Assembly: GCA_003694805.1 (NCBI GenBank)
Contig: RFJU01000131.1
Coordinates: 7,976 to 71,975, forward strand
DNA from: Candidatus Woesearchaeota archaeon
Lineage (GTDB): Archaea; Nanobdellota; Nanobdellia; Woesearchaeales; J110
DNA length: 64,000 nucleotides
Reading direction: 5' to 3'
In this document: piece by piece, positions 7,994-54,442 of the stretch
How the letters are laid out: every line of letters begins with the position of its first letter
Position numbering within the stretch: the first letter of the stretch is position 1
Position numbers and translations under genes: made by a program
Notes under the pieces: generated by a model
What the model saw: the letters and a program-made list of their open reading frames with translations, nothing else
What the model was told of the DNA's origin: nothing
Database searches by the model: none

Positions 7994-9514
7994 TTACTTG
8001 GCTTTGATGTATAGTGTGTGTTTGCACTCGTGCAAATTGAGTGTTCGAACCCCCTGATATTCGTTTTGATATCCATTTTCCTCGCTCGGCCAGTGCGGAA
8101 CCACTTCTTCGCAGTGTGCATGCCAGCGGGATGCGTTGTGTTGGAGGGCGTTCTTATCACATGTGCTTTCTATGAGCCATGTCGCGTTGGCACATTGTTG
8201 TTTTGCATGTGGCGTGGAAGCGGGGAGAAACAGAGGTATCATTTTATTATTGGTAAAGCTTGCAGGGTAAGGCGTTGTTGTTATGCCCAAGCCGTTGGGA
8301 AGGTTGGCGAACCATTCCTTGGCAAAAACGCCTTGCGTGTTTGGTTGTGAGGCATAGAGCGTGGCGTTCAAAAAAAGTAATATCCAGCAAAGTTGGAGCG
8401 TGGCGAGGAGCATCCACGCTACATCCGTTGGTTTTTTTGTTCGCTCAAGAAAGAGTGCCACGAGTTTCCACCCTTCGAGGTGAAAGAAAATGAAAAAGGG
8501 AAGGAGAAGGGCTGTGTTTTCTATGTGTTGGCAGGTGAACAGGAGTGTTGCGGCGCCCGCCGCGGTCATGGTAAGGGCTAAGGTTGAGGCGCTGGTTCTC
8601 TTCTTTGGTGCGATCGCGATGCCGATAAGAAGGAACGCTGCGAGGGGGATTTGGAGGAAGAGGGTTGAAGTGAAGAAGGCGAGGTTGGAGAAGGGGTCTG
8701 TTTGGCATGTTGTTCCTGAGCTTGTTTGAAAGGTGGTTGTGAAGAGGGTTTGGAGAGGGTTTTGCGCGTAATTGATGGTTGTGATGAGAGGCGGGGCGAT
8801 GGCAAGGGTGCTGAGGGTTATGAGGATGAGAAGATGTTTCGCAGCGTCGCGTTTTTCTTTTTTGGTCGTGTGCATCGCAACGAGAGGATATCCTTGCCAG
8901 AGGGCTGCTGCAAGGAAGAAGGGGGCTGTTTTGAGTGTTGTTGCGAGGGAGAGCGCTATGGCGAGGGCAAGGAGGAGTTTTTGCTTGTTGCTCGCTGCGT
9001 AGAGGGCGAGGATGAGAAAGCTGGTTGCTACTGCTTCAGGCAGTCCGAAATTCGTATGAGCGAGGGTTGCTGGAGCAGTTGCTAAGATGAGCGCGCCTAT
9101 GTTGGCTGCTGTGCTTCGATGGAATTTGCGCAAGAAAAGGTAGAAGAGCAGAGTTGATGTGCCGACGGCGGTTGCAGTAAGCAGGTTGGTGGCGGTGACC
9201 GGGTCGACGTGAAGTTTCCAGAGAAGGCCGATGGCGAGGGGGAGGAGGAGTGGCTGGGTCCATACGCCAAATCCTGCTGTGCCGTTGCTGAGGATGTATT
9301 TGCCGTAGGCGATGGTGAGTGCTTCGCTCCATTGGGGGAGCTGCATTGTGCTTGCTATGGCGACTCGAAGGGTTACTACGCCAAGAAAAAGGAAAACAAG
9401 AAGGGTGTTTCTTGAAAGCGTGTGCCAGCAAAAGGCGGTTTCAGTTCGGGCTTGGCGGGTGCTGGTTTTGGTTTGAGCGAGTTTGATTGGTTTGGGTGAG
9501 TTGCGGTTTTGCAT
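7994..9514 (-). CDS. GT-C fold membrane glycosyltransferase (ArnT/PMT GT39/GT83-like)
   Basis: About 11 predicted TM segments and an ArnT/PMT-like N-terminal loop. The start is uncertain because it overlaps the upstream gene by 74 nt. Confidence 0.55.
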   Translation of the reverse strand: MQNRNSPKPIKLAQTKTSTRQARTETAFCWHTLSRNTLLVFLFLGVVTLRVAIASTMQLPQWSEALTIAYGKYILSNGTAGFGVWTQPLLLPLAIGLLWKLHVDPVTATNLLTATAVGTSTLLFYLFLRKFHRSTAANIGALILATAPATLAHTNFGLPEAVATSFLILALYAASNKQKLLLALAIALSLATTLKTAPFFLAAALWQGYPLVAMHTTKKEKRDAAKHLLILITLSTLAIAPPLITTINYAQNPLQTLFTTTFQTSSGTTCQTDPFSNLAFFTSTLFLQIPLAAFLLIGIAIAPKKRTSASTLALTMTAAGAATLLFTCQHIENTALLLPFFIFFHLEGWKLVALFLERTKKPTDVAWMLLATLQLCWILLFLNATLYASQPNTQGVFAKEWFANLPNGLGITTTPYPASFTNNKMIPLFLPASTPHAKQQCANATWLIESTCDKNALQHNASRWHAHCEEVVPHWPSEENGYQNEYQGVRTLNLHECKHTLYIKAK

Positions 9515-10202
9515 TGTTGTTAGGATTTGTTTTGTTCTGCTCGAGTGCGTTTTTTTGTTTGAGTTTTTGGGCGAGAATAGATTCTATTTCTGTTGTGGTG
9601 AGGAAGTGCGGGTAGACTTCGCCGTCGATGATGACCGTGGGGGCCGTGGTAACGTGGTAGATTTGCTTGATGGCCCTGGTTACCGGGTTTTCCATGTTTA
9701 TGTCGTAAGGGTAGGTTCTCACGAAGGGGTATTTTCTTCTGATGTAGGTGAGGATGACTCCTTGTTGTTCGCAGGAGGGGCAGTCTCCCTTGTTGCTGTA
9801 AAAGTAGATTATGAGGGTGAGGTTATTGTTGCATTGTCTTTGTGAGCGTTGCATTAAGAGCCAGTGGCGGGCTTGGAGGAGGGAGTAGTAGTTTTTGAGG
9901 CTGACAACTTCTTTGTTGTCTTTTCCGAGTTGGTTTTCCATAAAGGTCAGTTTTTGGGAAACGTCGTAGAGTTCGTCCGTGAGCTCCCCGGTTTCTATGG
10001 CTTGGCAGGGATCTTCTGCAAAGATTGCGTATTGGATTTCTATGCCGAGGACGTCGAGGCGCAAGTCTCGTTCAAGCTCTTCTACGTGGGATAGTTTTTG
10101 TTCGGCGAAGGTATTACCGATGAAAATGCCAATAACAAATATGGCGATGGTAAGAAGGAGGGAGACGAGGTATTTGCTCTTATTAATACGCCTTCGTTGC
10201 AT
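9441..10202 (-). CDS. Membrane-anchored thioredoxin-fold thiol:disulfide oxidoreductase (DsbA-like)
   Basis: N-terminal TM LVSLLLTIAIFVIGIFIG and a CxxC motif GDCPSCEQ, with thioredoxin-like downstream strands (APTVIIDGEVY). Confidence 0.6.
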   Translation of the reverse strand: MQRRRINKSKYLVSLLLTIAIFVIGIFIGNTFAEQKLSHVEELERDLRLDVLGIEIQYAIFAEDPCQAIETGELTDELYDVSQKLTFMENQLGKDNKEVVSLKNYYSLLQARHWLLMQRSQRQCNNNLTLIIYFYSNKGDCPSCEQQGVILTYIRRKYPFVRTYPYDINMENPVTRAIKQIYHVTTAPTVIIDGEVYPHFLTTTEIESILAQKLKQKNALEQNKTNPNNNAKPQLTQTNQTRSNQNQHPPSPN

Positions 10203-10344
10203 ACTGCTTGAACGGGTTTGTTAAAAGTTTAAAAAATATTGGGTGTGAGCTGGGTGTGAGATCAGGCCTCGTGCCTGGTTGTTTTTTCGTCGTTCCCGTT
10301 CGTTCCCGTTGTTTTCTCCCCCCCCCCAACCCCCTTTGCCGTGT

Positions 10345-10416
10345 GTTGAATTGAAATCAACAGGGAAAAATTTATAAATGATGAGCGCATTCCTTGGTTG
10401 TTGATTTAAAGTCAAC
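10345..10416 (+). promoter_or_regulatory. groES-groEL promoter: TATA box TTTATAAA (10371-10378) flanked by two near-identical palindromes GTTGA-N7-TCAAC (10345-10361, 10400-10416)
   Basis: Read directly: GTTGAATTGAAATCAAC at 10345-10361, tttataaa at 10371-10378, GTTGATTTAAAGTCAAC at 10400-10416. The second palindrome sits where the TSS is expected. Confidence 0.55.
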
Positions 10417-10499
10417 GAAATGACTTGAGTTGTTTCGTGACAGGTTTCAGCAAGAAGGGTTTTCGGCAAGCTCACAAAAAAGCACGGAGGGAGAGAGCA

Positions 10500-10784
10500 A
10501 TGAAGTTTAAGCCATTAGGAGAACGAGTTTTACTCAAACCCGAAAAAGAAGAAGAAAAAACCAAGGGCGGCATCTACATTCCTGACACAGCAAAGGAGAA
10601 GAAGAAGCAGGGAGAAGTCCTTGCTGTCGGCACGTACACAAAGGGGCCGAACGCAGGAAAGCCCCTGCCGCTCTCCAAAGGCGATAAGGTGCTCTATGGC
10701 GGGTACAGCGCTGATGAAATTGAAGTTGACGGAGAAGAGTTCGTCTTCGTTGACTTCAAGGATGTTTTAGCAAAAATAGAATAA
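10500..10784 (+). CDS. groS: Co-chaperonin GroES (bacterial type)
   Basis: MKFKPLGERVLLKPEKEEEKTKGGIYIPDTAKEK...DKVLYGGYSADEIEVDGEEFVFV. GGAGG lies 9 nt upstream of ATG 10500. Confidence 0.9.
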   Translation: MKFKPLGERVLLKPEKEEEKTKGGIYIPDTAKEKKKQGEVLAVGTYTKGPNAGKPLPLSKGDKVLYGGYSADEIEVDGEEFVFVDFKDVLAKIE

Positions 10785-12488
<1,704 letters not shown>

Positions 12489-40539: not shown

Positions 40540-40764
40540 ATGCAAATGATGATGTATCGTCCATTTTTCCCGTTCGGCATTGTGTTTCAGCTAGGGATCT
40601 TACTTGCGTTCCTTGCCATCCTCTGGTGGCTGTTGAAAGGAGGTGGCGGTCGAGAGGAGAGTGCTAGAGCGGTGTTGGATAGGCGATTGGCTGCTGGCGA
40701 GATTTCAAAAAAAGAGTATAAGGAGTTGCGCAAGCTGATTGAAGACGGCGAAGGCGGCAAGTAA
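40540..40764 (+). CDS. Small membrane protein with SHOCT domain
   Basis: TM FGIVFQLGILLAFLAILWWLL, then LDRRLAAGEISKKEYKELRKLI. AAAGGTGA SD. Confidence 0.5.
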   Translation: MQMMMYRPFFPFGIVFQLGILLAFLAILWWLLKGGGGREESARAVLDRRLAAGEISKKEYKELRKLIEDGEGGK

Positions 40765-40777
40765 GGGTTGTTTAAGG

Positions 40778-41191
40778 ATGGAGATTGAGCCCAAGCGGTT
40801 GATTGTCGGGATGACGTTGGTGTTCTTACTTGGCATATCCTTCGCTATAGTGAACGGGTTTTACGTCCAATCGTCTGGGGAAGCGTTGCCTCTCGTTGTA
40901 TACGGGCTTGCGTTTTTGTCCTTGCTGGTCGGGGCGTCAGTCATGCTGTTATTTCAATGGAAGATTAACAAGGCGCAGGTGTTTCGTCTTGTTAAGCTCT
41001 TGCCTCCGGAAGAGCGAGTGATTGTGAAGATTCTCCTTGAGCATAATAACCGTCTTGAGCAGAATTATGTTGTGGCTTTGTCAGGTCTTTCAAAGGTGAA
41101 GGTTTCGAGAATTCTTGCTCGCTTAAGCGAGCGGGGCGTTGTTGAGAAGAAACCGTTGGGCAATACCAACTTGGTTGTTCTCAAAGTGTGA
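40778..41191 (+). CDS. Membrane-anchored winged-HTH (MarR-like) regulator
   Basis: Two TM helices followed by a C-terminal wHTH (ALSGLSKVKVSRILARLSERGVVEKKPLGN). Confidence 0.5.
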   Translation: MEIEPKRLIVGMTLVFLLGISFAIVNGFYVQSSGEALPLVVYGLAFLSLLVGASVMLLFQWKINKAQVFRLVKLLPPEERVIVKILLEHNNRLEQNYVVALSGLSKVKVSRILARLSERGVVEKKPLGNTNLVVLKV

Positions 41192-52018: not shown

Positions 52019-52205
52019 TCGAGCATGGTAGGTTTAGGGGGTTTTGTTGCTTCGTGCACAAAAGCTTTTTAAGGTGTGCGTAGTTCCTCATAACAATTGT
52101 TAAGATGGCAGGGTTGCGGTTGCTGGTTCGTACGCACAGCAACACAGCCCTCATTCCCGATTACGGCGTGGTGCGTTACGCATTGAAAAGTAGTAGGTGA
52201 AGAGC

Positions 52206-52808
52206 ATGGATCGTGTGGAAAAGAACGCTGAAGGCGAAGGGCATGAGCAGGAAATGAGTAAGCAGAAGCGTATTAGGAAGGAGATGACTATCGGGGAGGT
52301 TGTGCAGCGTTACCCTTCTGCTGCAGAAGTGTTGATGCGTGAGGGCATTCACTGTGTTGGTTGTGGTGTTGCTCAGTTTGAAACAATCGAGCAGGGGTTG
52401 CTTGGTCATGGCTTGACGCCTGATGAGGTTGATGAGCTTGTGGAAGAGCTCAATAACGCTATTCCTGAGGAGGCAGGGGATCCTGAGAAGATTGTCATCA
52501 CTGAAGTTGCTGCGAGGAAGCTCAAGGATATCCTTGAGGCGCAGGGGAAGAAAGGAGGGGGCCTGCGTATTGCAGTGCAGCCTGGAGGGTGTGCGGGGAT
52601 GTCCTATCATTTTGATATTGAGGATCACGAGCAAGAGGGCGATGTGGTTTTTGATGTGGGCGGCGTTCGTTTCTTCATTGATGCTGAGAGTGCAAAGCTG
52701 CTTCGCGGGGCGAAGGTGGATTATGTTGATGCGCTTCAGGGTGCAGGGTTTAAGATTACCAATCCAAACGCGCAGTCGACGTGCGGTTGCGGGCAGTCTT
52801 TTTCTTGA
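52206..52808 (+). CDS. Fusion protein: DUF1858-like CxxC redox domain + IscA/HesB-type Fe-S cluster insertion domain
   Basis: N-terminal MTIGEVVQRYPSAAEVLMREGIHCVGCGVAQFETIEQG. The C-terminus is ITEVAARKLKDIL...LRIAVQPGGCAGMSYHF...STCGCGQSF, which is IscA/SufA-like. AGGTGA SD. Confidence 0.65.
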   Translation: MDRVEKNAEGEGHEQEMSKQKRIRKEMTIGEVVQRYPSAAEVLMREGIHCVGCGVAQFETIEQGLLGHGLTPDEVDELVEELNNAIPEEAGDPEKIVITEVAARKLKDILEAQGKKGGGLRIAVQPGGCAGMSYHFDIEDHEQEGDVVFDVGGVRFFIDAESAKLLRGAKVDYVDALQGAGFKITNPNAQSTCGCGQSFS

Positions 52809-53791: not shown

Positions 53792-53797
53792 TGGTTG

Positions 53798-54442
53798 ATG
53801 GGCTATGTTTTGGTCGCTCCGGTGGGGGATAATCCTCGGGCGTTGTTTGTGGGGATGAAAGAGTTTCCTACAACAAAGGCTGTGCTGATAGCGCCGCCGG
53901 CGCGGTACGGCCGGGCAAAAAAGCTCAAGAAGCAACTTGAGCAGTTTACTGTCCCGACGGAGATTATTGAAATAAGGGGTAGTGTCATGGAGGAAATGTT
54001 TCGCGTTTTTGGCGCGCTGTGCGAGAAGTACTTGGCAGAAGAGGTGATTGTAAACGTTGCGACGGGCGATAGGATGAGCACGTGCGCAGCGTTGAGTGCG
54101 TCGTACGCTAATGGGCTTCGCGCGTTCGGAGTTGAAGGCGACTCGGTCATGGTCTTGCCGATCTTGCGACTTTCTTACTACCGGGAGCTGAGTGAACGAA
54201 AGCTCAGGATTTTGCAGGCGCTCGATGCAAACCGGTGGACGTCTTTGCAGCAGCTCAGCAAGGCGTTAGGCATGTCTGCCGCCTTGGTTTCCTATCATTT
54301 GAACGGGAATTATAAGTATCTCGGCTTGCGGCAGCACCGCCTCGTTGAGGTGAAAGAAGAGCATCAGCAACTGATGGTTCGGCTTTCCCAGATGGGCGTT
54401 TTGCTCTTGAAAGGGTACGTTGCGCAGAAGAATAATCGATAA
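53798..54442 (+). CDS. Putative regulator with N-terminal Rossmann-like (CARF/Csa3-like) domain and C-terminal winged HTH
   Basis: GGAGGAGGTG SD 8 nt upstream. N-terminus MGYVLVAPVGDNPRALFVG...VNVATGDRMST and C-terminus LRILQALDANRWTSLQQLSKALGMSAALVSYHL (ArsR/wHTH-like). Confidence 0.45.
   Translation: MGYVLVAPVGDNPRALFVGMKEFPTTKAVLIAPPARYGRAKKLKKQLEQFTVPTEIIEIRGSVMEEMFRVFGALCEKYLAEEVIVNVATGDRMSTCAALSASYANGLRAFGVEGDSVMVLPILRLSYYRELSERKLRILQALDANRWTSLQQLSKALGMSAALVSYHLNGNYKYLGLRQHRLVEVKEEHQQLMVRLSQMGVLLLKGYVAQKNNR

Follow-up and report, generated by a model that had tools for sequence, protein, structure and literature searches.

To our knowledge, heat-shock regulation in Archaea is understood in a few Euryarchaeota only, through Phr and HSR1. 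In bacteria, the HrcA/CIRCE and HspR/HAIR systems rely on spaced inverted-repeat operators located at the promoter, as does the regulon proposed here, and they too include cases in which a pair of sites brackets core promoter elements. Phr of Pyrococcus furiosus and HSR1 of Archaeoglobus fulgidus are winged-helix DNA binders, like the regulator family considered below, and a repressor seated on a palindrome downstream of the BRE/TATA is their documented mode of action (PMC10746257, PMC2396416). Our literature searches for a heat-shock regulator of DPANN archaea or Woesearchaeota found no published description. Here, we analyze a 64,000-nt stretch of DNA (hereafter the window), in which the initial annotation had noticed twin GTTGA-N7-TCAAC palindromes bracketing the TATA box of a groES-groEL operon and had read them as a heat-shock operator whose downstream copy lies where transcription should start. 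This reading is strongly supported by the comparative genomics presented below, and we estimate at about 0.78 the probability that the palindromes are operators of a Woesearchaeota-specific heat-shock (proteotoxic-stress) regulon, in which a dimeric winged-helix (wHTH) protein of the P0121 type would bind and repress groESL until stress occurs.

The archaeal background assumed for the window is borne out by its GroEL, which is 100% identical to RME52402.1 from a Candidatus Woesearchaeota metagenome-assembled genome (MAG). On the plus strand, groES (Cpn10, 94 aa, positions 10500–10784; Pfam PF00166, E-value 2e-29) is directly followed by groEL (Cpn60, 536 aa, 10878–12488; PF00118, E-value 2e-83), and this adjacency of Cpn10 and Cpn60 genes is that of a Group I (bacterial-type) chaperonin operon. 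The operon had been presented as a bacterial-type chaperonin in an archaeal setting; the Pfam assignments uphold this description, but such an operon is not unusual for the lineage. More than 100 GroELs from Woesearchaeota, 'Nanoarchaeota' and Methanosarcinales are 70–76% identical to that of the window, versus at most 65% for bacterial GroELs; a bacterial-type chaperonin is hence normal for Woesearchaeota. Bacterial-type GroES/GroEL are indeed common in this lineage (PMC8407392). A search of the 64-kb window for other heat-shock genes (htpX, grpE, dnaK, and small heat-shock protein genes) gave none. The window (1–64000) also displays a marked strand asymmetry: long ORFs lie mainly on the minus strand, the GC skew is strongly positive throughout (+0.09 to +0.40), and the AT skew is mostly negative.

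Sequence reading and motif counts confirmed the two palindromes and their position around the groES TATA box. Putative operator site 1, GTTGAATTGAAATCAAC (10345–10361), sits directly 5′ of a purine-rich run, GGGAAAAA (10363–10370, plus strand), which the sequence suggests to be BRE-like and which abuts the 5′ side of the TATA box TTTATAAA (10371–10378, plus strand). Beyond the latter come putative operator site 2, GTTGATTTAAAGTCAAC (10400–10416), and a Shine-Dalgarno-like GGAGGGAG (10486–10493, plus strand), located 6 nt 5′ of the groES ATG (10500), itself 83 nt beyond the end of site 2. The palindromes thus flank the TATA box as described, with measured gaps of 9 nt (site 1 to TATA) and 21 nt (TATA to site 2) in place of the 10 and ~22 nt given initially; their starts are 55 bp apart. 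Site 2 is predicted to cover the transcription start of groES. For the divergent gene upstream of groES (9441–10202, minus strand), a distinct TATA-like stretch, rich in AT, is present ~25 nt from the gene start and over 110 bp away from site 1; this separate, distant element indicates that the palindromes belong to the groES promoter.

GTTGA-N7-TCAAC has two exact matches in the 64-kb window, sites 1 and 2, versus 0.08 expected, none of 100 shuffles of the window reaching two matches (0/100); with one mismatch allowed, no site other than these two was found across the window. Such numbers already speak against the idea that the palindromes are fortuitous or nonfunctional, for example remnants of a small repeat element, an idea that could draw on the abundance of short tandem repeats and on the C10 run in the surrounding spacer. 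The conservation of the motif, with matching geometry, at chaperone promoters from more than 55 independent loci (detailed below) effectively refutes this explanation, to which we give a negligible probability. The spacer itself, upstream of site 1 (10240–10327), is made of short repeats: TGGGTGTGAG occurs twice (10240–10249 and 10251–10260), TCGTTCCCGT twice in tandem (10290–10309), and GTTGTTTT(T/C)TC twice. It ends with the C10 run, which does exist but at 10318–10327 and not, as first reported, at 10322–10331.

The palindromes had also been distinguished from bacterial CIRCE, correctly so: the window contains no match to CIRCE, TTAGCACTC-N9-GAGTGCTAA, with up to three mismatches. It likewise contains no match to HAIR (CTTGAGT-N7-ACTCAAG) with up to two mismatches, and none to the HSR1 box (CTAAC-N5-GTTAG), whose half-sites and spacing differ from those of the palindromes. 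A clear CIRCE (TTGGCACTC-N9-GAGTGCTAA) was observed elsewhere, at the groES promoter of an Omnitrophota bacterium whose GroEL is a relative of that of the window (locus L011, 5573–5599), and makes this locus a convenient positive control for the bacterial system.

The first lead to a regulator was locus L005, from an 'archaeon' MAG whose GroEL is 65% identical to that of the window. In this locus, GTTGATTTAAGTTCAAC lies 6 nt upstream of ATTTATAAA, ahead of an htpX-groES-groEL-grpE...dnaK operon, a further copy of the motif, with one mismatch, extends over the start codon of htpX, and a divergent gene encodes P0121, an ArsR-like winged-helix protein of 135 aa. Among the GroEL-based loci examined, L005 was the only one with the motif in a promoter (a match in L032 being left out); matches in three bacterial loci (L011, L037, and L042) fall within the coding sequence of groES or at its ends, and chance probably accounts for them. 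We detected 116 relatives of P0121, all of ~135 aa and all (116/116) from MAGs of Woesearchaeota, 'Nanoarchaeota' or unclassified archaea. An HMM scan of 1.84 billion protein representatives gave 281 matches at E ≤ 1e-10 and 524 at E ≤ 1e-3, and these figures, together with the taxonomy of the MAGs, indicate that the P0121 family is compact and lineage-restricted.

By using the family profile, we collected 80 metagenomic regulator loci totaling 419 kb, in which the exact motif occurs 60 times, versus 0.5 expected from shuffles. Fifty-eight of these 60 copies are located in the intergenic region between regulator and chaperone genes, 3–176 nt upstream of the regulator ATG and mostly 75–100 nt from it. 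The sites define the consensus GTTGAyTTwAArTCAAC, in which T8 and A10 are invariant (48/48 sites). The initial annotation had proposed looking for the motif upstream of other heat-shock genes, and this is where it was found: when neighbor classes were assigned by pattern rules, with representatives checked by Pfam, the exact motif was present in 31 of the 34 loci in which the divergent neighbor is grpE, in all 8 with hsp20, all 6 with htpX, 1 of 2 with groES/EL, and both loci with a CxxCxxCC gene, that is, in 48 of the 52 loci of these five classes. Among the other four, L121, L134, and L156 carry the motif with one mismatch and L160 only a degenerate version. The motif is also present in 6 of the 14 loci whose neighbor was left unclassified by the rules used, three of the six neighbors resembling grpE according to Pfam (L112) or to visual inspection (L150 and L148). 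It is absent from the six loci with a large secreted protein as neighbor and, more generally, from all 14 loci classed as having a secreted-protein or other unrelated neighbor. Four loci (L147, L099, L110, and L151) display a second full site just 5′ of the regulator ATG, which suggests autoregulation. Scanning 5 kb on either side of the regulator loci yielded only four one-mismatch sites, similar in sequence and lying 1.6–2.7 kb into the divergent operon; we set them aside as presumed coding sequence, their frame not having been confirmed.

Both window sites are 17-bp palindromes of this family. Site 1 fits the consensus, including the invariant T8 and A10; site 2 likewise retains both positions, has at its center the 7-mer found most often in the family (TTTAAAG), and is identical over all 17 bp to sites in L101, L102, L138, and L141. 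The gene downstream is a heat-shock chaperone gene, groES-groEL being also the target in L005, L094, and L156. Absence from orthologous promoters had been put forward as grounds for rejecting the operator reading, and here the outcome is divided: the groES promoters of L005, L094, and L156 (one mismatch) carry the motif, whereas ten other Woesearchaeota groES promoters (P0002, P0003, P0004, P0007, P0009, P0014, P0016, P0023, P0036, and P0107), including those associated with the most similar GroELs, do not; neither do the Methanosarcinales groES promoters L001–L003. Its presence in some groES promoters and absence from others indicate that membership of groESL in the regulon is lineage-dependent.

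Other lineages of Woesearchaeota display a second wHTH subfamily, of ~135 aa and 29% identical to P0121 (E-value 9e-21), encoded divergently from groES (e.g., L081 7175–7582 and L168 1373–1780, both on the minus strand). This distant paralog is found at some of the ten groES promoters without the motif (L081–L083 and L168), where the intergenic sequence is different and GTTGA-N7-TCAAC is absent; it may control the chaperonin, as a paralog, through another operator. Another near-perfect palindrome, CACAAATGTGA-N5-TCACATTTTGTG, was observed ~60 nt upstream of groES in L085 (5470–5512), from the Woesearchaeota MAG GCA_016185625.1.

The position of the motif relative to core promoter elements is also conserved. 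Read toward the chaperone gene, 50 of 55 unique loci have a TTTAWATA-type box that ends 23–26 nt before the palindrome, and 34 of these 50 also have, on the far side of the box, a purine-rich BRE-like run (GAAA-type, often cGAAA). The location of this run indicates that the promoter is oriented to the chaperone gene and that the palindrome covers the predicted start of transcription, which is where archaeal repressors that prevent the recruitment of RNA polymerase classically bind. In L094 and L156, the succession of BRE/TATA, gap, and palindrome directly precedes groES (with one mismatch in the L156 site), and site 2 of the window matches this geometry, its 21-nt gap beyond the BRE/TATA being 2 nt under the usual ~23–26 nt. 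A second arrangement, in which the palindrome is followed after 5–6 nt by a TATA-like box, was observed at htpX, hsp20, and groES loci; site 1, which precedes the TATA box by 9 nt, resembles it. The window promoter hence joins both arrangements at a single TATA box (site 1, 9 nt, BRE/TATA, 21 nt, site 2). The related promoters (L087–L166, e.g., L143 and L130) also contain a conserved half-site-like element, GTTGATATTAC when read toward the chaperone gene, which immediately follows the TATA box and precedes the palindrome by ~9 nt; this element is missing from the window promoter.

Sites upstream of the BRE/TATA occupy an activating position for some archaeal regulators, and position-dependent activation and repression are known from TrmBL1, SurR, and other regulators of Thermococcales. 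A P0121-type regulator acting on this motif could therefore obey an activating or dual logic, with site 1 recruiting TBP/TFB and activating under stress while site 2 represses. The location of site 1 and the second arrangement, in which the htpX, hsp20, and groES palindromes would also be upstream of a possible second promoter, are both in line with this proposal. Yet in 50 of the 55 loci the palindrome is downstream of the BRE-TATA, at the start site, most grpE promoters have no TATA-like box within 14 nt beyond the palindrome, and the known archaeal heat-shock regulators are repressors (PMC10746257, PMC2396416). We consequently regard activating or dual logic as unlikely, and the predicted repressor-operator arrangement as well supported by these comparisons.

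Site 2 is also inside the predicted 5′ leader (~98 nt) and could form a 5-bp stem, so that it might instead act once transcribed, as a hairpin or RNA thermometer controlling translation or stability. The predicted fold of this leader, however, is not significantly more stable than those of shuffled sequences (z = −0.79), the Shine-Dalgarno is free in the MFE structure, and site 1, being 5′ of the TATA box, would escape transcription. In addition, a perfect DNA palindrome with invariant T8 and A10 in the would-be loop is the pattern of protein–DNA recognition, the opposite of the compensatory stem changes with a free loop that an RNA element would show. An RNA-level role thus seems to us extremely doubtful.

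If the palindromes are bound by a protein, the P0121-type regulator is the foremost candidate. The family alignment reveals a conserved N-terminal module (RKP...N.ELQWF..SLGLF..RDKDKSCFR), which includes a conserved cysteine (Cys44), a wHTH recognition helix, (S/T)RGTV(I/V)HH, and a conserved long helix at the C-terminus. A structure model (pLDDT 88) consists of a wHTH followed by this long C-terminal helix, and such a predicted architecture fits a dimeric palindrome binder. The closest solved relative by sequence profile is ST1889 (PDB 2D1H, E-value 3.8e-8), while NCBIfam Sta1 and Lrs14 scores amount to 25 bits versus cut-offs of 80–90. The recognition helix is invariant, also in family members whose loci lack the motif, which makes the covariation between protein and motif weak; the sole difference in the regulator that tracks motif absence is a change in the wing, from YMLR to YMLA. 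In six loci without the motif (L109, L114, L123, L133, L155, and L161), the regulator gene adjoins that of a ~845-aa secreted protein devoid of Pfam domains, and the wing reads YMLA for YMLR, except in L161 (YMLS); these regulators may form a branch of the family with a function of its own.

This constancy of the recognition helix, and the fact that adjacency of gene and motif is no proof of binding, could be taken to mean that another factor binds the motif, the gene of the 135-aa wHTH protein being merely coregulated. A motif located in the upstream region of a regulator's own gene is, on the other hand, what is typically expected of a factor that is autoregulated or acts divergently, and 58 of the 60 motif copies are so placed, in highly diverged loci. 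The alternative binder could also be the wHTH protein encoded at 40778–41191, which the initial annotation had offered as a candidate regulator. That proposal was not supported: the product (40739/40778–41191) is a membrane-anchored DUF7343 wHTH protein unrelated to the motif-linked family (E-value 7.7), no exact or one-mismatch motif lies near its gene in the window scan, and no DUF7343 protein was seen to adjoin chaperone genes in the loci examined. Binding by a factor outside the P0121 family is thus, in our opinion, very improbable. The region 40541–41191 comprises a small ORF with a hydrophobic N-terminus (ending ...GEISKKEYKELRKLIEDGEGGK) followed by the DUF7343 wHTH, whose N-terminus is also hydrophobic, and gives the impression of a distinct membrane-associated module with no connection to the groESL promoter.

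When P0121-type or L081-type regulators were sought in the 64-kb window by tblastn, only spurious matches were obtained (E-values 0.1–0.5). The wHTH protein encoded at 53795–54442 has HFX_2341_N and HTH_24 domains and is outside the P0121 family. None of the NCBI accessions of nine regulators belongs to the RME series of the window's MAG. The window encodes a DUF1858 + HesB/IscA Fe-S biosynthesis protein (52197–52808, plus strand) 62% identical to that of L156 (5415–5945, minus strand), the only regulator locus with a GC content near that of the window (51%), in which the Fe-S gene is immediately downstream of the regulator; this shared gene led to no regulator in the window. The window is the only case found in which the motif does not adjoin a regulator gene.

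The motif, its statistics, its conservation, its geometry, and its tight linkage to the regulator gene and to chaperone genes are observations; from them we infer binding by a P0121-type protein, repression, and heat as the signal. On the repressor-operator reading, the window would be a two-operator version of the regulon, with a groESL promoter controlled in trans and unlinked to the regulator gene, the candidate regulator being presumably encoded elsewhere in the genome of the organism, outside the 64-kb window. In unstressed cells, a regulator dimer would occupy each GTTGAyTTwAArTCAAC palindrome: at site 2, it would occlude the predicted start and block RNA polymerase recruitment, and at site 1, next to the BRE, it could reinforce occupancy or hinder TFB binding. 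The spacing of 55 bp is about five helical turns, which places the two sites roughly on one face of the DNA. Upon stress, the regulator would be released and groES-groEL derepressed. Thermolability has been proposed for Phr and HSR1, and titration by chaperones for HrcA and HspR; by analogy, either could be the sensing mechanism here, and the conserved Cys44 leaves room for redox sensing. That DPANN Woesearchaeota and 'Nanoarchaeota' possess a heat-shock regulon of their own, with a 135-aa wHTH repressor acting at the starts of grpE-dnaK, hsp20, htpX, and groESL is a moderately probable extension of this scheme.

The proposal amounts to a first candidate heat-shock switch for Woesearchaeota, and it supplies, for mostly uncultured organisms, a concrete predicted regulator–operator pair with its consensus, geometry, and target set, while the motif may be used to annotate stress regulons in Woesearchaeota MAGs. 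If it is true, bacterial-type chaperone genes (groESL, dnaK/grpE, and htpX) have been wired into archaeal-type promoter control, under BRE/TATA-type repression, by a switch without detectable kinship to Phr or HSR1; no specific homology of the regulator to Phr (PDB 2P4W) was indeed found. The closest solved relatives by profile and fold are small archaeal ArsR/Lrs14-like wHTH proteins (ST1889, PDB 2D1H; AbfR2, PDB 6CMV), but these, unlike P0121-type proteins, have no link to chaperone genes or to the operator, and the likeness reflects a generic wHTH core. The layout, by contrast, is shared with the euryarchaeal systems, in which a palindrome around the start is found at hsp20-type and other chaperone genes as well as at the regulator's own locus, and HSR1 and Phr repress under normal conditions, as we propose for P0121-type regulators (PMC2396416, PMC10746257). 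With HrcA/CIRCE and HspR/HAIR, the P0121 regulon has targets in common (groES-groEL and grpE-dnaK), and the hrcA and hspR genes are often located at a chaperone locus, as are those of the P0121 type.
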